Source: an uncultured Actinomycetota bacterium (GTDB lineage Bacteria > Actinomycetota > Actinomycetes > Actinomycetales > CAWJMD01). From it: a stretch of DNA of 64,000 bases. A program made the translations under genes and the position numbers. The notes below the pieces were generated by a model. That model saw only the letters and a program-made list of their open reading frames with translations, had not been told where the DNA came from and ran no database searches. Position 1 is the stretch's first letter, and each line of letters opens with the position of its first letter. The stretch covers positions 254,603-318,602 of the forward strand of contig CAWIED010000002.1 in NCBI GenBank assembly GCA_963835085.1, written 5' to 3'. Positions 26,398 through 37,205 of this stretch are shown piece after piece.

Positions 26398-26662
26398 CGC
26401 CAGAGCTGTAAGCCGTGAGCGGCCCAGTGCCCAACGACGCCAGACTGCCGGCAACCCCAGCAACGTCGGCGACGGTGCCAGCGTTGGTGCTGGCGCAACA
26501 CCGGTTGCGAAGGTCAGTGCGGCTCAGTTGCTTGCTGCTCTTGGGAGTGAGATCGAAGAAGAGAACCGCGGGCCTGCTGGATCGGGCGACTAGGCAAGAA
26601 ACCTTGCCACAAGCAACCTTGTTCTCATGAAGGAGAGTGAGCCGTGGGCAACCAGTAGCCTG

Positions 26663-26800
26663 ATGAAGGCCCCGGACGAGATCGAGGAGCCGGTCATCGT
26701 CGAGTCGGCGCATCGCCACGGCGTCACCGAGGCCGACAAGCTGGATGCCCTTCGCTTCACCATCGCCCACGTCCGGCAAGACGACGACATGGTCATGTTC
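26663..26800 (+). pseudogene. Truncated small toxin-like gene interrupted by the IS3 fragment
   Basis: IVESAHRHGVTEAD.LDALR...QDDDMVMF resembles small actinobacterial TA toxins (from memory), then switches abruptly to IS sequence. Confidence 0.4.
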
Positions 26801-27129
26801 CAGACCCGGATCTCGACCGCGGCCTCACCGAGTGCCTGGCTCAGATCAGCGACCTCAGCCTCGAGCTGCTCCTCCCGGGTCGACGGACCGGACTTCCCAG
26901 CCGCCAACGCTGTCTTGCCGGCCTCGAGAAAGTCGGCCTTCCACCGCCCGATCGACTGCTCGCTGACCTTCTCCCGACGCGCCGCCTCAGCGATCGTGAG
27001 CTCGCCGGCGATCACGCTGAGCACGATCCGCGTCTTCTTCTCAGCAGGAATGGATGGGGGTCTGCCCATGTGTCTGACTCTCCTTCAGGACTGACTCAAT
27101 CGTCCTGCCACAAAGTCTGACGCGCGACA
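26800..27129 (-). mobile_element. IS3-family fragment (left end + orfA, no orfB)
   Basis: End TGTCGCGCGTCAGACTTTGTGG at 27129; orfA from 27069 MGRPPSIPAEKKTRIVLSV..TIAEAARREKVSEQSIGRWK, breaking at EIRVW. Confidence 0.75.
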
Positions 27130-27435
27130 TTGCGAAGTACTCCGATCCCGAAGGTGGCCCCGTCCGGCGCCCACCTTCCTCGCAAGAGAGCCAACGAATC
27201 GTCAACAAGCATTGCCACAACTAGGCGCTCATCGCCACACCCGGATTCCGCTCATCGTGCGGTTGAGTTGAGGGAGGTTGTCGGCGTACCGGGCTGGGCG
27301 TCGGGGGCAACTTGCTGAATGGCGGGGAGGGGTCTGTAGTGACCACGAGAGTTCCAACGTCTGTTGCGGACCAGATGATGCCTCGTCACCAAAGCCAAGC
27401 TCCGCCTCATCACCGGCGGCGCCGGCTGACTCGGA

Positions 27436-27933
27436 TCACACGAACGAGGCGTGCACTACCTCGAACTCTGACGTCCATGACGCCAGCCCAGCCCGAATCT
27501 CTGCATCCGAAGCGGAGGTGAAGTCGGGTGGCGGCTCGTCTCCGCCGGGGATGTCACCGACGTAGAACTCGGCAGCCGAACCGGCCACCTGGAGTCTGCT
27601 GCCCGACGTGAGATCCGCGATGCACGAGAACCCTTCACCAGACGCAGCAGGCTGCCAACCCATGACCGCCCGCCACATTCGTTGCGCTCGCGGTTCCGTG
27701 CGCCACTGAAGGTCCCTGACGCCGTGGACCACGACGACTGCGGTGTTGCCCATCTCCAACTGCAGAGCACCTCGACAATCGAACAAGAGCCAGACCGAGG
27801 ACGTTGTCGCATCCATCTTGACGTCGAGCAGCGCTGCTTCCAGCAGCGCATCAGGCTCGGCAAGTGCGTCAGCCTCGGGCATCGCAGCGAGCGATCGGCG
27901 CTCGGGCCATGCCAGGAGTTCCTCGATGATCAC
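27436..27933 (-). CDS. Putative immunity protein for the upstream small toxin
   Basis: Acidic ~165-aa ORF; GTG start overlaps the toxin TGA (GTGA). Confidence 0.65.
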   Translation of the reverse strand: MIIEELLAWPERRSLAAMPEADALAEPDALLEAALLDVKMDATTSSVWLLFDCRGALQLEMGNTAVVVVHGVRDLQWRTEPRAQRMWRAVMGWQPAASGEGFSCIADLTSGSRLQVAGSAAEFYVGDIPGGDEPPPDFTSASDAEIRAGLASWTSEFEVVHASFV

Positions 27934-28655
27934 GGCAGGAACTCCCAGTGCCACCACAGGCTGGACTTGCCGACAGTCTGCCCAGTGAACGGATTGATCG
28001 TCTGACCGCCACCGTTGAGGTACGAGGCGTACCCGTTGGGCTTGGGGTACTTGCCGCCGGTGACTGGATCCATGATCCGGACGTCGGAGGCGGAGTCGTT
28101 GAGACCGTGGCCGCCGCTGCCGCCGCGGAACATGAAGCCCCTGCCGCTCTCGACCGGGAACGGCCCCTCCGCGCCCTTGGGAACGATCACAGTCTCGCCG
28201 TTGGGCTTGACGATGAAGCTCGGAGACCGGGCAACGCCCGACCCGACGTCCTCTGCTGCGTTTGCGGCAACGATCGCACCTGAAGTGGGGCGTGCTTGTC
28301 CGACGGCGCCCCCAGCAGCGGCCAGGTTCGCCGCGCCGCTGCTGTCGATCCGCAGAAGCTGAACGCTGGGGTCGTAGGTGGTGGGGTAGTGACCTGTGAC
28401 GGTGCTCGGGCGCGCCAAGTAGCCGTCCGACGCCGCGTCGACGGCCAATTGTGGCGCGGTGTAGTCGTAGGTGATCGCAGGCGGACCGCGCTCAAATGCC
28501 CCGTCAACGACCGAGGGCGAAGCCGCAGGGCTGGTGTACGCGTGAGGCGTGATGGCCGGAGACAGCCCGCCAGCGACGGCGCTTGGCGACGATCCGACCA
28601 GCAGCGCGAGAACTGCCGCGAGCAGAGCGGCGGCGAGTGCACCGATCCTATTCAT
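27930..28655 (-). CDS. Signal-peptide-bearing polymorphic toxin without RHS repeats; nuclease-like C-terminal tip
   Basis: MNRIGALAAALLAAVLALLVGSSPSAVA signal; linker with ERGPP; VAAN junction; tip VRIMDP..YPKPNGY..Y.N..GQTINP.TG..WH. Confidence 0.65.
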   Translation of the reverse strand: MNRIGALAAALLAAVLALLVGSSPSAVAGGLSPAITPHAYTSPAASPSVVDGAFERGPPAITYDYTAPQLAVDAASDGYLARPSTVTGHYPTTYDPSVQLLRIDSSGAANLAAAGGAVGQARPTSGAIVAANAAEDVGSGVARSPSFIVKPNGETVIVPKGAEGPFPVESGRGFMFRGGSGGHGLNDSASDVRIMDPVTGGKYPKPNGYASYLNGGGQTINPFTGQTVGKSSLWWHWEFLP

Positions 28656-28929
28656 CCAGTGCGTCCCTGATCAGTGCGCGGAGCTCGTCCAGACGGAAGA
28701 CGGCAGCCGGGACCTGTTCATCGAGCAACGTCGTGAACTGGATCTCCTCGAGATCGGCTTCCGCCAGGCGGACAGCGTTCGGCACACCCGTGCCGTCGTT
28801 CTCGAATCGCGGGATCGCGCTCTGCAGCACAGCTTGCACTTCGCCAAGCATGGCGGTCCCCGCTTCGAGCGCAGCGATCACTGCTAGAACATCCTGGGCG
28901 ACCGCGGCGTTGTAGTCGTTGAGTTTCAT
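28648..28929 (-). CDS. Putative immunity protein of the RHS toxin
   Basis: 93-aa acidic helical ORF, ATGA-coupled to the RHS stop. Confidence 0.7.
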   Translation of the reverse strand: MKLNDYNAAVAQDVLAVIAALEAGTAMLGEVQAVLQSAIPRFENDGTGVPNAVRLAEADLEEIQFTTLLDEQVPAAVFRLDELRALIRDALDE

Positions 28930-31900
28930 CGAGTGATCACCGTGATGACGATGTTGTTCTCGGTGATGACCTGAACCGTGCCGCTGGTGTAGGACAGCCG
29001 AGGCTCTCCGTTCGGACCTTTGACCGGGCTTCCCTTCGTGCTACCTAGGACGTCCTCGATGTAGTTGGGCGAAATGCTCCGACCGGGGCCGGACGCTCCG
29101 GCAGGTGCGCCGAGCCCGCTCGGTTGCATGCGGTCGACGGCGTGTCTCGTGTACAGCCGATCCCCGACCTGGGCGTACTCGCGGCCCCCTTGGGTGATCT
29201 TGGGGTAGTTCTGCCAGGAGGTCCATGGAATCTTTCCAGCGCCGTTTGCGGCTTGGGTGGCTTTGGCTGCGGCGGTGGGTGCTTTGGTGAGGGCTCCCCC
29301 GGGGATGCAGAAGCTGAGGAGGAAGTTGTTGGCGTCGTTGAACTTGTCGACTTCGGCTTGGGTGGGGGCGACGTGGTAGCCCTGGGCATCGCATTGGTTG
29401 AGGGTGGCATTCGACATAGCGCAGGCGAAGCCGCCGCCGTCTCCGCCGGCGCAGTTGGCGCTGTTCTGCGCTACTTGTTGGCGGACGGACACGGTCTGGT
29501 TACTGGTCCTGGTGCGGTTATTGGCACTGGAGGACGTGTGCTGCGCCATCCACCCGTTGTTCTTGGCCTTCGTAACCGCCTTGCTGGTAGCCACGACCTT
29601 GTTCACGACAGCACGGCCAACTCTGGTACGGACGACCCGGGCCATGACAGCCGTACCCACCGCCCGACCGCCACTATTCACTGACTTGACCCCGGAGGCG
29701 AAGGCAGACCGGGTCGCGGCGAATCCAGCGCCGAAAGCCTTCTTCGTGGCCCGCCAGGCCTTGGAAACCTTGGACTTGCCCCAGTTCCAGGCTGCGCTGA
29801 AGGGGTTGGCGAACAGCCCGTCGGGGTCGGCTTGGTTGATCGGGTTGTTGTTCGCGTACGCGTACCCGTTCAACTGTTGCGGATCGCTGGGGTTCATGAT
29901 CGGGTCGATGGACAGGAACCGCCCGGTCAGGGGCTGGTACGCCCGGGCACCCAACTGGGTGTACCCGGTCGGGTCCAGGGTGCCCCCGACGAATCCCTTC
30001 GCCCCGACCCACATCCCGGCACTGTTCGTGCGAGGGGCACCGAACGGGTCCAACCGGCGAGCCGCGGTCAACGCCCCGGTACCGGCGTTCACCTCGAAAC
30101 TACCGGTGTTGTGCGGGTCCGTGACGACCACCGACAGGCCCGTACTGTCCCGGACCGCGACCTGGACACCACCGAACGTGTAGTACCTGGTCGAGGCCTT
30201 AACCCCAGTACCCGTCGTCAGATTGATCTCGGTATCACCCACATACAGGGTCGTGACCCCACTGCCCGGGTCCCGGCGCAGCAGCCGTTGCCCGTCCGCG
30301 TCATACACATACGACGACGCTCCGGGCCCGCTCACCGACACCAACCGGTTCTCCTGATCCCAGTCCAGGGTCTGCGTGCCCGCCGCACCGGTCTGGGTGG
30401 TCGTGTTCCCCGCCGCGTCATAGCCGGTGGTCTCGGTCCGTGACCCACCCGGACCCGTCTCCGCGACACTGACCAACTCGTGCGGGCCAGTACCCGCCCC
30501 CTGCCCCGAGGGGGCCTTGTACGTGTATGACCGCGTCGTGTCCCCGGCCCCGCCCACCCCGTGCCGAACCTCACCAACCCGGTTGCCCGTGCTGTCATAG
30601 GAATACGTCGACCAGTACGGGCCCGACCCGCCCAGCACCGACGCCGACGGAGTACTCGCGCAGTCTCCGCCCGTGGCCCCGGGTTGCGCCCATGCCTGGG
30701 TCAACCGTTGCAAATAGTCATAGCTGAAGCACTGCCGGTCACCACCCGCACCGGCCTTGGTATCGGTGATCGAGGTGATCGCCCCCGCCGGGTTATACCC
30801 ATACGTGATATCCGCATCCAAAGCCCCGGCCCCGGACTCACGCGCCACCACCGTGTTCACCAACCGGTTCGTGCCCGGCTCGTACGTCAGATCCACCGTC
30901 GTCAACTTCCCCGACGTGTTCCCCAGCACCGCCTGCACCGTGTTGCCATACACATCCGGCACCACCCCCGGCACGATCACCCCGTGATCCACCGTGTCCA
31001 ACGCAACCGGACGATCCAACGCGTCATACACCGGCGTCTGCACATCAGTCACCAACCCCGGAGCACTCGGCGGAGTATACCGGGCCACCTGCCCCGAGAC
31101 CGTGTACGACACCGACGACGTGTACGTGCCGGCCAACGCCCCCTCACCCGACGGGATCACCACACTCGTACCGGTCGGCAACCCCGCTGCCGAATACCCG
31201 GTCACCGACGACGTGTACTGATTTCCCCCGGCATACCGGGTCGACGAAGCCGCCAAACCCTTACCCCCCGGAACCGTGTCGAACGCCCACGACGCCAACA
31301 ACGTCCCAGCCGCACTGCCCGTACGCAACTGGGTCTGCCGACCCAAAGAGTCATACCCATGCCACAACACCTGACCACGCGGATCACTTGTCGTCACAAC
31401 CCGCCCCAGCGCGTCAAACGACGACGTCGAGGTCCCCCGATCCGGATCCGACGACGACACCCGCCGGCCATGCACGTCATAGGAGTTCGACCACACATTG
31501 CCCGCCGGATCAGTGATCGTGGCAACCTGCCCACCCGGGGTATACGTGTACCGAGTCTCGTCATACCCACTCGCACCCGTAGCACCCGTGTGCTGACGCA
31601 AGGCGGTCGTACGACCCAACGCATCAACCACCGTCGTCGTCACCGTGCCACCCGCCGGTGGAGTCACCGTCGTCGTATCTCCCGTATATGCGGTCGTCGT
31701 CGACCACTTCGGGACATTGTTCACCTTCAACATGTCCTCAGTGACCCTACCCAACCCGTCATAGGTAAACGCATGAATCGTCGGAACCAAACCCAACGAC
31801 GCCGGCGCCACCAATCCCACCCCCGGACTCCCCGTACTCGCGAACGGGCCCACCACCTGCGCAGACAAACCCCGAGTGTCGTAGTCCGTCGTCGTGACCA

Positions 31901-34900
31901 GACGACCACCACCCGCATCCGCAGAGACCGGAGTCTGAGTCTGCCGAGGCCGCAACAACCCGTCGAAAAGCTCCACGCTCGTGGCGTACGTGCCCTGTGA
32001 GACCAGGGTGTTCGTCGTGACCGCATTGGCCGCCGTCGCCGACACCGTGTACGCATACGACACCGACGGGGAGAGGTTCGTAGCCCGACCCGGGCCCCAC
32101 ACCTTCACCACGCGTCCCAACGCGTCATACCCCGCAGCAGCACTCCGCCCGTTCGGATCAACCGCCGCAATCGGACCCACCCCCGGGTCCATGGTCAACG
32201 TCCCGACCTGCCCCGCGGGGTTGGTCGTAGCAACCGACGTTGCGGGCACTGTTGCCGTCGGGGTGTATCCGGTGGTCGTGGTCTGCCCCAGAGCGTCGGC
32301 AACGGTTGTGGTCCGGCCCAATGCGTCGTAGCCGGTCGTGGTGGTCGTGGTGTAAGCCCACGCACCCCCCGCATAGGAATCCGCTTCGGTCTCCCGGGTG
32401 ACCTGACCCTTCGACGGCGCGGCGGTCAGCGACGTCGCACCGTCGTAGAACATTTGAGTCCCTGTAACCAGATCTTGCGGGAACACCGGGGTCACCCCAC
32501 ACGGCTTAGCCACCGCCATCGCCGTAGCCGGGGTGTCCATGATCCAGGAAGTCGTGTTCTGCGTGTACGTGGACGTCGTGCAAATGTCATCACCGGTCGT
32601 CGTGATGTCACCCTCGTCCCAGACCTGGATGTCACGGCCATAGCCGTCATAGCTCGTGCTCGAGCGGGTAGTGCGATACCCACTGCTGACCTTCGTCCGG
32701 GTTGTGGTCTGAGCCTCCTCGACCCGCACGGCGGTGGTGGCCGGGCTGGTAGAGGTGTCGGTTCCGGTGGGTGAGCTGATCCAGGGGCTGGTGATCTCCG
32801 ACTCCTGGACAGTGCCGGTGTCGCCGAGGTAGCTGATCGCCTCGCGGGGGAATCCCGCCAGGGGCGCATCGTCCGCCAGCGTGCCGCCTTGCGAATCGGT
32901 CACAGTGACCGACCGCGTTCCGGTCGGCAAATGGTCGCCATTCATGCCACGCATATACAGCGTCGACGACTTCAGCTTGGGGTCGGTGCCGCTGCCGATC
33001 CGCGTCTCGACCACCCCGTATCCACGCCAGTCACCCCAGGTGCGGTACTTGACCGGGGTCAGCACATTGTCGTCGTAGTGCCAGGCGGGATCACCTACAT
33101 ACGCGTAGGAGGTCGTCTTCGTCGGGGTCCCTGTAGTGGTGTCCGTCTCGGCCACAGCGGTCACGACGTACTTATGGAAGTAATTGATCTCCGGAGTGCT
33201 CGCTCCCGGCCGCAAGTAGAACACTGGAAAACAGCGTCGCGTATTCGATTCCGGGGCAGCGGGTTTGGAGGTCGGCGTGCAGTCCTGGGCGGAGTAGGTG
33301 ACGGCGGTCGTGGCACCCGTGCCAGAGGTGATGCCGCTGACCCGCCACCGCCGCAGCGGTGGCGCCTGGTCGCCAACCGCGTCGACCCGGTTGTCCATGG
33401 CCAATCCGGTGAAGGTGACCGGAGGCATAGTGATGGCCGGTGAGGTGGCCTTGCCGGTCCGGGTGATCGAGTCAAGCCACAACGACTTCGACGTCCCATC
33501 ACCCGGGTCGGCCATCGACTGTGCGAAAGCGAACGAGTCCAGCGGCCGGTCTGCACCGGCCGCAGTCACGGTGCGCGTGTCGATCCCGGTCAATCGGCGG
33601 CGAGTGAAGAAGGTAGGTGAATACTTGCCGGAACACGTTGCCGCGGAACAAATCTGGTCAAACGGCACGTCCGGCCAGTTCGCGGCGTTGGCTGCGGTGA
33701 GCAGCGACGGATCTCATGTGAACGACCCTGTCGGGATGCATCGTTCGGCTGTAGCGAAGGTGACCTGGTAGGGCGCCTTCCCAGTCCAGACTCCGTCTCG
33801 AGTGCCGTACTCGACCCGGTTCAGCACGGCGCCTCGGTCGTAGGGCGTGATCTGCGTGGTGCCGAATCCCGTGCCGGTATTAGCGGTCGAGCCCATGTTC
33901 CGGTTGTAGTAGTTCGTCTCCTTGTCGTAGAAGAGCGACATGGCATTACCGTTGACGTCGACCACGTACGCCAGATTCCATCGGTAAGCCTGTTGGCACC
34001 ACGCGGTGGAAAACGTTGCGGCGTAGCACTGTTCGCCAGGGTGGTTGCCGTAGACCGGGGCTGTCTGGGTCGAGTTCAGGGTGGCCGTGTCACCAGCACC
34101 CCGGCTTTGGCGCCCGAAGTAGTACTTCGTGCCGTCGTCGGTCGTGACCAGCCAGTACTCGCCGTTGTTGTCGCCGTTGCTCTCCCCGGTCAGAAGTTGC
34201 ACCCGAGTGTTGTCGTCGTCCTTGGGGATCCACGCCCCGGTGGCAGTGTCATGCACCAGGTCAGTGCTGTGACCGGCCAACGACATCGTCACCGAGTCCG
34301 GGCCCCAGCAGAGGTCGCCGGTCTTGCGGTTCGCGTTGTTCGCAGCCTGCCCATTCTGCGCTGCCATGTCGTCGGCACACGAGACGTACCGGCGCTCGAC
34401 AAATCCCAGGTTCAGATCGAAGCCATCACCCACCCAGGAAGCCTGGTTATTGGTCGAGGCGGTACGCCCGTCCAGGCTGGCCGAGGAATACGACACGGTG
34501 ACTTCCGGGCTCGGACCGGCACCGGTGTCGGGGACGTCGATCGGATACTGCCAGGAGAAACCGCCAGTGCCCGATCCGGCGCTCCACGCCGCGGACGGAG
34601 ACAACGACGTCGCGGTGAACGAACCGGCGGCACCCGAGGCGTCAGCGGTCAGCGCCAGCGCCACCATCCCGGATGAGAGTTTGCTCGCCGTCGCAGCCGG
34701 CAGCACACCTGAGACGGTCGACCCGTCGGATGTGCTCCCCTGCAAGGGTTCCGCGGTCACCGCGCACCCGGCCTCCGGGGAGGCCACGTCGCAGTCAGGC
34801 ACCTCCACCAGTCGAGCGCGAGAGACCCAGTCGCCGCCGATGGCGTCTGCGAACTGAGACACGTCGACCGAGATCGTCACCGGACCCTTGGCGGATTGAC

Positions 34901-35429
34901 TGGTTGCGCTGTCGTCATCCTGCATTCCGAACACCACGCCGGTGACACCCGCACGCTGACTGGCGGCCCGATCGAGCACCGAGACCCGCATGTCGCGGGA
35001 CGTGCCACGAACACCAACGCCGAGGCCGGCCACGGTGCCGCGCCCGCCAGCACTGATCTTGCCGCTACCGCGTACAGGCCAGGTCACCCGAGACCGGCCG
35101 TGCCCGGGTCGAGTGCCTACTTGGACGGGGGTGCCGGTCACCGGCACGGAACGCACCCGTGGGGTCTGGGCAGGTCGTTTGGGAAGTCCGGGCGAGGCCA
35201 TGAGCTCTGCCGGGCTCGCCCACGGTGCCGCCGCCCACGCGACTTCACCGGACAGCATGGAGATAACCAATGCCAACATCACGACCACACTGACCCGAAG
35301 ACGGATCGGGTTGGCCGGCTCCCATCGGCTACCGGTCATCGCTGTCCCCCAATGTGTTCCACTGCTCTGAGTGCGCCGGATCTGTATTCCGGGGCCTTTG
35401 CCTGGCTTGTGCTGCTCCGGTCGGTTCAT
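28926..35429 (-). CDS. Large secreted SpvB/TcB-like + RHS-repeat polymorphic toxin with one in-frame TGA (33714-33716)
   Basis: Hydrophobic leader; SGTGGFSWQYPI..YSS..DGRT..NNQASWVGDG; many YD repeats; core end LNGYAYANNNPINQADPDG; tip YTRHAVDRM..VITV (BECR-RNase-like). ORFs 33714-35429 and 28926-33668 share one frame. Start may be 35339. Confidence 0.9.
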
Positions 35430-36230
35430 GACGCGAACCGGGTAGGTGCACGAAACGACTGGGTGGTGGTCCCGGTCCAGACGTTCAGGTCATCAATCAC
35501 CCCGGCGTAGGTGCGACCCAGCTGCAGACCACCGGTTGAGGCCACCGCCGTGGCCGAGGGCACGTCAGCGGAGGCGCTCACGAAGGCAGGAGTCAGCTCC
35601 GGAGAGCGCGGGCTCGTCCACAGCCACACCTTGCCCGCTGTGGTGGGGGTCGGTGGTTGGTAGGACGCCACGATCCAGTCCCAGGTACCCGGGTCGGTAC
35701 TGGCCTCGATGGCGGAGTCCACGCTCGTTGATCCCGCGCTGGTAGTTACCGTGAACCGATACGTGCGTACCCCGGCAACCGTGACCGCGTCAACTGTGAA
35801 CGCATCCCCCCCGGTGCGGGTTTGGGACAGCACGGTGCCCGTGCCGGTGCCGCCCTGAAGCTTGAACGCCATCGACAGGCCATTGGCGGTGGTGGTGTCG
35901 GCAACAGGGCTGGCGGTCGTGAACCCCGGCTGTCCGGTCAGGGCCAGCGCCCCGTCGTCACCGCCGCCGTTGCCTGCCACCGTGCCGATCCGGGAAGGCA
36001 CGCTGATTACCGGCATGGTGGGTGTGTTCCAGGCGACCGGGGTTGCGGTCGGCCCGGTTCGCTCCTCGAACGGCCAGCGCGCCATCAACGCCGTGTCCTT
36101 GCCGATCGGGTTGACCGACACCGGTAGCGACTGATCGGAGTTGCTCGTGCGGCCGCGGGCCACCGCCGTGAACGTCACCGGAGTCGTGCCGATCGGGTCG
36201 TACACGATCGTGCCGGAACCCGCCACCCTT
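35426..36230 (-). pseudogene. 5'-truncated LamG/ConA-like domain protein (RHS partner gene)
   Basis: ARWPFEE..G, GTVLSQ, WDWIVASY, LQLGR..YAGVIDDLNVW; stop overlaps RHS ATG; 5' end replaced by helicase sequence. Confidence 0.7.
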
Positions 36231-36234
36231 CCGA

Positions 36235-37205
36235 CGCCTGGCACTGCTCTCCGCGACCATGACCGTTGAGACCCCTGGCGCCGATCCCTGGGCCTACATC
36301 CGCGCACGCCTGGGCCTGGCGGATGCCGAGGTGATCCGTCTGGACGGACCATTCGATTACCGCACGCAGGCCAGGCTGTTCGCCCTGGCCGATTTCCCGT
36401 CCTGGGCGGAACAACCCAAGCAAGCGATGCGCACCGTCGCGCACCAGCTCGCTGGCTACACGCGCGAGGTCACCCAGCGGCTGGAACCAAGCCCCCTGGC
36501 AGACGCAGGCGCAGACGCGTGTGAGGAACCGCCATGGATGCGCGGCGCGATGGTCCTCACCACCAGCCGCAACGCCGCCGCCGGCATCGCCGACGAGCTG
36601 GGTCTGTTGCACGCTGCAGAAGGCCGTACCGTGCCGGTACACAACCAGGTGACCCTCGGAACCTCGCGCGCCGTTGCCGAGTTCACCGGGACCGCCAGTC
36701 ATCAGGGGGGAGTCCTGGTCGGTACCCGTGGGCTGTGGACCGGTGTCGACGTCAGCGAACCAAGTCGAAACCACCTGGTGTGGATCAACAAGCTACCGTT
36801 CCCCGTATTCACCGATCCAGTGATCGCAGCTCGACGCGAAAGCGTCCGCAGGGCAGCGGAACGCCGCGGCGACGACGACCCGGACTTGAGGGCCAACGCC
36901 ACCTATTACCTTCCACTGGCCGCGCTCGACCTGCGCCAGGCCGTCGGCCGCCTGATCCGCAACCACTCCAGCCGCGGCGTGATTATCGTCAGCGACCGCA
37001 AGCTTGCCGGAGACCTCCCGCTTCGCCGGCTGTACCGACAGATCTTCCTCGGCAGCCTCGACCGCGGGCTTCTCCATAATGACCTCGATACCGGCGAGAT
37101 CGCAGGTGGCAACGTCGTCACCATGCGCGACGCTTGGGCGCAGATCTGGCCGTTCCTGGCGGAGGTAGGCGCCCTGCCGGCAGACCGCCTCGGGCCGCTG
37201 ACTGA
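36235..37205 (+). pseudogene. DinG-family helicase C-terminal fragment, interrupted by IS1634
   Basis: LLSAT motif III, GTRGLWTGVDV, INKLPFP, LRQAVGRLIR..RGVIIVSDR; resumes at 40598 (LGPLTDATSLEEHTMLP). Confidence 0.8.

Follow-up and report, generated by a model that had tools for sequence, protein, structure and literature searches.

A probable compact polymorphic toxin with a Sec-like signal in an actinobacterial RHS locus, and a short junction at which toxin cassettes may change carriers

Anatomy of the locus and of the compact gene

We analyzed a 64,000-nucleotide (nt) stretch of DNA from an uncultured Actinomycetota bacterium (contig CAWIED010000002.1, positions 254,603–318,602), here called the window. 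The subject is a gene at 27930–28655 on the minus strand, located behind a large RHS toxin gene and encoding a protein of 241 amino acids (aa), P0002, that we regard as a candidate compact toxin. Its C-terminal toxin domain (the tip) is preceded by a short junction, VAAN, whose DNA recurs at the tip of the RHS toxin. Coordinates are collected in Table 1; sequences from other genomes are given by our own handles where these are needed.

The genes for the 93-aa, 241-aa and 165-aa proteins follow the RHS gene on the same strand, and neighbours overlap by a few bases; the ATG start of the 241-aa gene overlaps the stop codon of the preceding 93-aa gene. A first-pass annotation, made from the sequence alone, had described a complete gene with a signal-like N-terminus, a linker of ~100 aa, a VAAN junction and a coupled downstream gene, and this anatomy was confirmed on the minus strand. 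The same annotation found no RHS core in the gene, and we agree: the 241-aa protein had no match to RHS_repeat, Rhs_assc_core or any other Pfam or NCBIfam entry at E ≤ 0.1. Pfam and NCBIfam also gave no family for the carrier, the toxin tip or either of the two immunity candidates.

Table 1. Features of the RHS locus and its edge, in window coordinates
Feature	Position	Strand	Remarks
RHS toxin gene	28926..35429	(-)	one frame with an in-frame TGA; RHS_repeat, YD_repeat and Rhs_assc_core matches
RHS-side junction GCC GCA AAC (..TQ-AAN-GAGKIPW..)	29244..29252	(-)	three residues ahead of the tip
RHS toxin tip, 105 aa (GAGKIPWTSWQNYPK...VITR)	28929..29243	(-)	Pfam family: none
Candidate immunity gene of the RHS tip, 93 aa	28648..28929	(-)	start overlaps RHS stop
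Signal-peptide-like N-terminus of the compact toxin, aa 1-28	28572..28655	(-)	predicted cleavage AVA/GG
Type-A carrier, aa 29-128, predicted disordered	28272..28571	(-)	short motifs; alignments A1, A6
Compact-toxin junction GTTGCCGCAAA (V129 A130 A131 N132)	28261..28271	(-)	codon-level conservation across 16 carrier genes
Leader of the cassette (aa 133-140), then toxin domain (aa 141-241) and stop	27930..28260	(-)	AlphaFold2 model, homologues
Candidate immunity gene of the compact toxin, 165 aa	27436..27933	(-)	GTG start overlaps toxin TGA
XRE-type helix-turn-helix (HTH) gene remnant, last ~15 codons	27381..27429	(+)	converges on array end
IS3-type transposase OrfA fragment	26590..27069	(-)	HTH_Tnp_1 and HTH_28 matches; broken end of island

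The N-terminus of the 241-aa protein resembled a Sec signal. Read heuristically from the sequence, it has R3, a hydrophobic stretch at aa 4–20, and A26-V27-A28 followed by G29, and AlphaFold placed a helix at aa 2–20. A signal-like N-terminus was present in all 13 of the genome-encoded relatives examined. By this heuristic, the protein appears to carry the N-terminal trafficking signal that is expected of polymorphic toxin systems (Zhang et al. 2012).

The region of ~100 aa behind the signal, which we term the type-A carrier, contained a series of short motifs in alignments (xYxYD, ERGPP, AVD..HG..ARP, TYD and VAA[NK]). AlphaFold, run with 26 sequences, assigned no secondary structure to aa 21–139, with predicted local distance difference test (pLDDT) values of 50–71. 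The carrier is best read, from the model, as a disordered region bearing short motifs. A degenerate second copy of the type-A carrier lies elsewhere in the window's genome (G000:C1:2533717-2533905; L016); it was matched at E 7e-11, contains one internal TAG, and its junction is gone.

A carrier family with variable tips and a linked candidate immunity gene

The first-pass annotation had suggested that the compact gene represents a family of minimal carriers, and a profile check upheld the idea: the N-terminus is constant and the tips vary. A search with aa 30–136 alone retrieved P0164, in which a matching N-terminus leads to CAAN, a PT-HINT domain and another tip. Profile A1, built from eight mature type-A N-termini, retrieved 12 proteins, of which seven were new; all seven had other tips, with the RIMDP..NGY tip of the compact toxin in 0/7. 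Two comparisons placed the change at the junction. Protein P0165 equals P0015 up to ..SSMVAA and diverges afterwards, and P0166 is nearly identical to P0014 up to GVAAK, where an EndoU domain begins. Among whole genomes, A1 had matches in 12 of the 401 from the order, which represent 8 of 118 genera, and in 4 of 401 sampled across the class; the window's own genome is part of both counts.

At least ten different tips follow VAA[KN] in the carrier family; besides the seven new proteins, more than 10 genes read from genomes had other tips behind VAAx. Those named by Pfam after VAAx were EndoU_bacteria, TNT, PT-HINT with Ntox37, and PT-HINT with unknown domains, and there were several unnamed domains besides. 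Full-length relatives with the same architecture occurred in several families. As judged from sequence, the family thus appears to combine a constant N-terminus with differing C-terminal domains in the manner of polymorphic toxins. The same junction was also seen on a second, shorter Sec carrier, type B, consisting of a signal peptide, ETRV.AS..VV.. and ..VATG-VAA[KN] (for example, L029 10174 and 19569, L031 15370, and proteins P0007 and P0008). Type B is known from the matches of other searches.

AlphaFold, with 123 aligned sequences, modelled aa 141–241 of the compact toxin as an all-beta domain with pLDDT >90, and aa 28–140 as unstructured. The folded domain therefore begins at about aa 141 (SPSF), some 10 aa later than the VAAN start initially assigned to it. 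Homologues of the tip were widespread, with 679 representative clusters at E ≤ 1e-3 and 335 at E ≤ 1e-10; they were found at the ends of RHS proteins of 1600–3100 aa, after PT-HINT (..VHNxC), and in signal-peptide proteins of ~200 aa.

The tip had also been called nuclease-like, which was not established, the sole hint being a weak fold match to the DNase PT7. Foldseek against the PDB gave no match to the tip at E ≤ 1e-3. In a wide VIA-align search, PT7(Bc) (PDB 8owu) came out on top with Z 5.4, a root-mean-square deviation of 3.5 Å and 12% identity, the alignment covering 73 of 76 residues; the runner-up had Z 3.8. In the Foldseek list, PT7(Bc) had the best probability and ranked third by E-value (E 0.65). 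A sequence-profile search of the PDB returned 0 matches at E ≤ 1, hence none to PT7. We treat the PT7 DNase likeness as a weak, model-based lead and not as an assignment. The ESM Atlas returned generic polymorphic-toxin look-alikes for the tip (Ntox47/Tox-HNH-EHHH, 0.94), from which no specific family could be derived.

The gene downstream of the tip follows it from carrier to carrier. Homologues of the 165-aa protein (62–80% identity) stood directly after the tip in 8/8 metagenome loci, taken from a scan with a single protein, and the carriers in these loci were type A, RHS and PT-HINT. A modelled complex of the tip and the 165-aa protein scored an ipSAE of 0.87 versus 0.01 for the best control; 58 of 80 solved complexes attain this mark, as do 2 of 110 mismatched pairs, counts that are approximate (own alignments used). 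The runs shared at least 98% of contacts, the partner had pLDDT ≥91, and the predicted interface takes in the nearly invariant tip residues N214, Q218 and H236. The model supports the 165-aa protein as a cognate immunity protein that would act by binding the compact tip. An immunity gene that lies immediately downstream and appears to travel with its toxin domain is again what a polymorphic toxin should have.

Some contigs from public runs matched this part of the window. Those from a soil run were identical to the window and possibly stem from the same source sample, so they are not independent. A contig from a wastewater metagenome, 96% identical (32 differences in 723 nt), spans 27533–28255 and stops just short of the junction, within a few nt. 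From RNA libraries of activated sludge came a contig of 331 nt, 97% identical (9 differences), which covers 27681–28010, across the tip/immunity boundary. The wastewater contig hints that sequences branch at the junction, and the RNA-library contig that relatives transcribe the region, but contigs cannot prove either.

The junction as DNA and as a breakpoint

The starting point for the junction was a 10-mer, CGTTTGCGGC, that the first-pass annotation had placed at the start of both tips. Exactly two copies occur in the window, at 28259–28268 and 29243–29252 as had been reported, and both are read in frame as GCC GCA AAC G. Shuffles had a mean of 0.23 copies, and two copies were never attained in 100 shuffles; this test was post hoc. 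A fairer test of the shared 10-mer gave no signal. The RHS and compact-gene regions have eight 10-mers in common, at least one 10-mer in common with the gene was found in 101 of 119 control windows and in 1467 of 2000 codon shuffles, and the match between the two sites does not extend either way. On this test we rejected the 10-mer alone as evidence. The positions reported for it were correct; by itself the sharing is no more than chance, and its meaning comes from relatives. A looser sequence, TGTTGCGGAC at 27362–27371, had been offered as a third site, but it is not at the start of a tip and belongs to array-end DNA beside a 49-nt XRE-gene remnant.

In relatives, the junction codons were strongly conserved. 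Among 16 distinct carrier genes, in which the junction was placed by the protein profile only, the first alanine was GCC in 16/16 and the second was GCA in 15/15, with one threonine (ACA) besides. The preceding valine was GTT in 13 genes and GTG in one (GTT in 13/14), and two genes had isoleucine as ATT. Background usage, taken from 10 of the 16 genes, was 13.6% GCA among alanine codons and 18% GTT among valine codons, and codons of the ERGPP motif varied across the same carrier genes. Conservation at synonymous positions, a check that the first-pass annotation had proposed, is supported by these counts.

The core of the junction, TTGC-C-GCAA, is palindromic, and GTTGCCGCAAA with the C that comes next forms the 11-bp palindrome GTTGC-C-GCAAC. 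The genome (4.47 Mb) has a single copy of GTTGCCGCAAA and, both strands counted, 90 sites of GCCGCAAA. A Chi-like hotspot was considered and rejected, as GCCGCAAA is not over-represented (90 sites, where permutations of its letters have a median of 188). The integron core site is GTTRRRY, and the junction motif does not match it.

Homologues of the window's RHS tip revealed the junction on other carriers, with GCC GCA RAx standing three residues before the tip on four different carriers. These were the RHS carrier of the window (TQ-AAN, CAA GCC GCA AAC); a type-B Sec carrier in G049, of the same genus, with a frameshifted tip homologue (GV-AAN); an RHS carrier in G061, of another family (GV-AAE, GTT GCC GCA GAA); and another protein in G645, of a different family (EE-AAN, GAA GCC GCA AAC). 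The window RHS gene and the G049 type-B gene are unrelated upstream, and share ~90% identity from GCCGCAAAC through the tip and a weaker identity through the immunity gene. The G049 tip homologue itself (L029 10177-10470) is 94% identical in amino acids and, compared with the window, lacks a single base at each of two places, so the gene is a pseudogene or the sequence is in error.

Further pairs broke at the same place. The RHS gene of G049 and its downstream orphan have 68 identical nt, ending just past GCCGCAAACGGCG. A motif-anchored ungapped comparison showed a step in similarity at the motif in six pairs (five unrelated-carrier or carrier-sharing, one type-A). Tip-sharing pairs had 3–9 identities per bin of 15 upstream of the motif and mostly 9–15 of 15 downstream, whereas the carrier-sharing pair showed the opposite. 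A second RHS-to-compact swap was seen between the RHS protein of G289 (..PRGV-AAN-SGIGFAEGLGK..) and a type-B protein of G091 (..VATGV-AAN-PAIGFAGGLGK..). Ahead of P0002-type tips, a type-A carrier has GTT GCC GCA GAT, another carrier has GGT GCC GCA AAG and an RHS carrier has GCT GCT GCA AAG. The proposal that cassettes are exchanged between unrelated carriers at a short fixed DNA site is thus supported, with similarity switching exactly at GCCGCA.

Junctions were also found in arrays. The largest, in G049, extends over ~14 kb from the RHS gene onward and has 12 junctions, all on one strand: one in the RHS gene itself, seven in carrier genes and four in orphans or fragments. The 11-mer occurs 13 times in G049, versus 0 for the reversed control, and most of the 401 genomes have 0–3 copies. 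In G000, G049, G289 and G129 an RHS gene of the same orientation is found upstream, and none was seen within ~4 kb of the G091 array. Around the four arrays examined, insertion sequence (IS) elements were near two, and an XRE HTH gene or its remnant was at three. Upstream of the G091 array, at a distance of ~1.8 kb, is a tyrosine recombinase gene (L031 17208-18329 on the minus strand; Phage_integrase with a SAM-like N domain), perhaps part of an integrated element.

The RHS gene of the window is broken by an in-frame TGA at 33711–33713, giving an upper open reading frame (ORF) at 33714–35429 and a lower ORF at 28926–33668. The sequence around the stop reads ..CIPTGSFT*DPSLLTAAN.., and the G289 homologue, a single open frame of 2290 aa that is uninterrupted where the window has the TGA, has ..NASCPS.. 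in the corresponding region. The TGA could be a nonsense mutation, an assembly error or a read-through codon. In the lower ORF, the RHS-associated core (TIGR03696) and YD repeats end at ..DPDGL (aa 1285, ~nt 29814), and a linker of ~190 aa separates DPDGL from ..TQ-AAN-GAGKIPW.. and the 105-aa tip. Counting the window's own, 6 of the order's 401 genomes have a homologue of this tip, and homologues of the 93-aa gene come after homologous RHS tips in G049, G196 and G061. RHS extensions between DPxGL and the junction (window 28929–29813 on the minus strand; L036) are Gly/Ala-rich and basic or hydrophobic, and the C-terminal region of the L036 RHS protein has glycine-zipper-like runs; such extensions may be membrane-translocation segments upstream of the exchangeable tip. 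On the other side of the gene, a 308-aa ORF at 35426–36352 (minus strand) ends in a stop codon that shares bases with the start of the RHS gene (ATGA). It has no Pfam or NCBIfam family and may have an accessory role for the RHS toxin.

The island is flanked by a phosphotransferase system (PTS)/fructose operon on one side, and by a helicase fragment and several DDE transposases on the other. Over its 49 nt, the plus-strand stretch at 27381–27429 has 96% identity with the 3' end of an intact gene (HTH_3) that closes the G091 array. This XRE-type HTH gene, at L031 9208-9813, converges on the end of the G091 array, and one at L029 13218-13892 is inside the G049 array. The XRE-type gene may be a regulator of these toxin loci.

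Interpretation and relation to known toxin systems

We conclude, with a probability of roughly 0.75, that the window encodes a compact Sec-exported polymorphic toxin with its immunity gene, and that its cassettes have moved between unrelated carriers at a short junction. The signal peptide would take the 241-aa protein across the actinobacterial membrane, leaving a mature toxin of a ~100-aa disordered carrier and a ~100-aa all-beta toxin domain, possibly a nuclease. The carrier may serve in receptor binding or import, as do the disordered translocation domains of bacteriocins. Translation of the overlapping downstream gene would supply the cognate immunity protein, predicted to cover conserved residues of the tip. 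The compact gene seems to share an operon-like array with the RHS toxin, in which tip and immunity gene would together form a mobile cassette whose 5' edge is xAA[NKE], encoded by (GTT) GCC GCA RAx. This edge appears to be common to at least three unrelated kinds of carrier: type-A Sec carriers, the shorter type-B Sec carriers, and RHS C-terminal extensions. Cassettes would have moved among them by recombination that resolved at the short conserved DNA stretch, perhaps through short homology rather than a dedicated enzyme.

Several observations weigh against this interpretation. Other conserved columns of the carrier are also homogeneous in their codons (ACC 10/10, GCC 13/13, GTC 11/11, CGC 10/10, TCG 11/12), and part of the codon signal may reflect shared descent or gene conversion among carriers and not selection on a DNA site; the carrier genes are related, so the counts overstate the number of independent events. 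Some P0002-type tips lack VAAx, standing directly after DPLGL (P0012) or after HINT ..HNSC (L038–L041). An exchange site of 11 bp is short for RecA-dependent recombination. A recombinase was not consistently linked, a tyrosine recombinase being near one of the four arrays examined. The internal TGA may leave the RHS partner inactive in the window's genome, and the only lead to the tip's activity is the weak fold match to PT7, with Foldseek at E ≤ 1e-3 and the PDB profile search both empty.

The most serious competitor, with a real though clearly smaller chance of being right, holds that VAA[KN] is mainly a feature of the protein, a linker or a site of proteolytic maturation, that its DNA was simply co-inherited, and that exchange proceeded by ordinary homologous recombination through longer flanks, for example immunity genes and adjacent carrier genes. 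V-A-A/K fits the small-residue rule at positions -3 and -1 of signal-peptidase-like cleavage, protein conservation reaches past the junction codons (R-x-x-V-A-A-K-T-A-D-E in many members), and a cassette in an array has the next carrier gene on its 3' side, which offers longer homology. The codon homogeneity of other carrier columns also suits this account, but most of those columns use preferred codons, whereas at the junction the non-preferred GTT and GCA are fixed while the ERGPP codons drift. Furthermore, GCC GCA is kept on RHS extensions whose flanks differ (TQ-AAN, TN-TAAN, EE-AAN, KG-AAK), and similarity begins or ends within a few nt of the motif. A role in the protein is compatible with cassette exchange at the junction, and the two are not exclusive.

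Rather improbable, in our view, is that a dedicated enzyme, whether a site-specific recombinase or a nuclease that sets off gene conversion, acts on the 9–11-bp palindrome TTGC-C-GCAA, and that the arrays are integron-like cassette stores. The palindromic core is invariant across unrelated carriers and across orders of the class, one orphan begins one codon ahead of the motif (F-VAAK), and the recombinase near the G091 array would be a candidate. However, the arrays of the window locus, G049 and G289 have no recombinase within or beside them, the genes there being IS transposases and housekeeping genes only; the first-pass annotation had proposed to check for linked recombinases. A second (3') site, which with a linked recombinase would make the system integron-like, was not found, and other orphans retain stubs of 6–19 aa of a former carrier, as homology-driven displacement would leave. 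A last account, in which the 241-aa gene would be a silent orphan left to decay in the RHS locus and the recurrence of the 10-mer a coincidence, is scarcely credible. In its favour are the lack of significance of the 10-mer by itself, the stop in the RHS gene, the IS remnants that interrupt the island and the degenerate carrier copy. Against it, the ORF is intact: it has its own start codon and a signal peptide, and it overlaps its neighbours at both ends. It has full-length relatives of the same architecture in several families and lacks RHS core sequence, and the motif recurs at homologous junctions of other genomes.

Beyond cassette exchange at the junction, a bolder and doubtful extension would make GTTGCCGCAA(C) a dedicated docking site, or universal adaptor, of actinobacterial toxin loci, either recognized by an enzyme or unusually prone to short-homology exchange, so that cassettes could be plugged onto RHS or minimal Sec carriers and the 'orphans' would be expressed, secreted toxins. 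More cautiously put, the evidence points to the possibility that the spare cassettes of such RHS loci are expressed and secreted in their own right.

Identical toxin domains are found on Rhs, contact-dependent inhibition (CDI) and type VII secretion system (T7SS) carriers, and the site and manner of their movement between carrier classes are poorly defined. The window locus is a concrete case, with a junction of 8–11 nt, similarity that switches on or off at that junction, and RHS and two minimal Sec carriers joined to it. Natural arrays contain up to 12 modules, and the case as a whole makes cross-carrier exchange directly testable. The locus also adds an undescribed disordered carrier family and a widespread unnamed toxin domain (the 679 clusters above) with its immunity family.

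Among characterized toxins, PT7 is a Mg-dependent DNase neutralized by a downstream immunity protein (bioRxiv 10.1101/2021.10.19.465003). Unlike the window tip, PT7 is fused to LXG and exported by the T7SS. Colicin-type bacteriocins are diffusible toxins in which a disordered N-terminal translocation region bears short conserved motifs, the cytotoxic domain is C-terminal and an immunity protein is bound tightly. By analogy, any likeness to them would be functional only, as colicins are released by lysis and the compact toxin would be Sec-exported.

The general logic of orphan C-terminal/immunity modules has been described for Rhs and CdiA (PMC3482391, in the portions drawn on here). As in those systems, with their PxxxxDPxGL and VENN junctions, cassettes are stored downstream of a main gene and exchanged at a conserved junction-coding stretch, and one G049 orphan, with a 19-aa RHS stub and no start codon, is of the classical RHS kind. 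The window module differs from a classical RHS orphan in having its own ATG and a signal-like N-terminus, and no RHS core or PT-VENN. Its RHS neighbour differs from classical Rhs proteins in that the junction lies ~190 aa past DPDGL, within the C-terminal extension and not at the end of the core. Unlike CdiA-CT/PT-VENN, there is no VENN match in Pfam, and the motif is VAAN.

Sec-dependent polymorphic toxins with lineage-specific N-termini are known from MAFB-N, the Microscilla N-terminal domain and Amoebophilus APD1/APD2 (Zhang et al. 2012, PMC3482391). These resemble the compact toxin in having a constant N-terminus after the signal peptide and highly polymorphic C-termini; in the passages of that survey consulted here, none is actinobacterial and none matches the type-A carrier. 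We found no description of the carrier or the junction in the literature consulted, although the additional files of PMC3482391 could have the carrier or the tip under a different name.

By analogy, the compact toxin would work most like MafB of Neisseria. MafB toxins consist of a signal peptide, DUF1020, a VSGDF/VKYDT/DWVKN motif and a variable C-terminus, and form mafB-CT/mafI cassettes (PMC4287609, as far as its sections used here describe them). On the same source, the shared traits are a Sec signal, a lineage-specific constant N-terminus and a short motif where the variable toxin part takes over, in some cases immediately followed by an intein-like/HINT domain, as well as an immunity gene downstream, and islands with alternative cassettes in which a start codon is present or absent. 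In contrast to MafB, the 241-aa protein lacks DUF1020 (no Pfam match at E ≤ 0.1), and its carrier is ~100 aa and predicted to be disordered, where MafB has a domain of ~300 aa. The host is actinobacterial, the modules are part of RHS loci, and RHS proteins and another Sec carrier use the junction as well. What appears to be new here, on the evidence of the sequences, is a disordered minimal carrier, complete and presumably expressed genes inside RHS loci, and a junction common to unrelated carrier classes that seems conserved down to its non-preferred codons.

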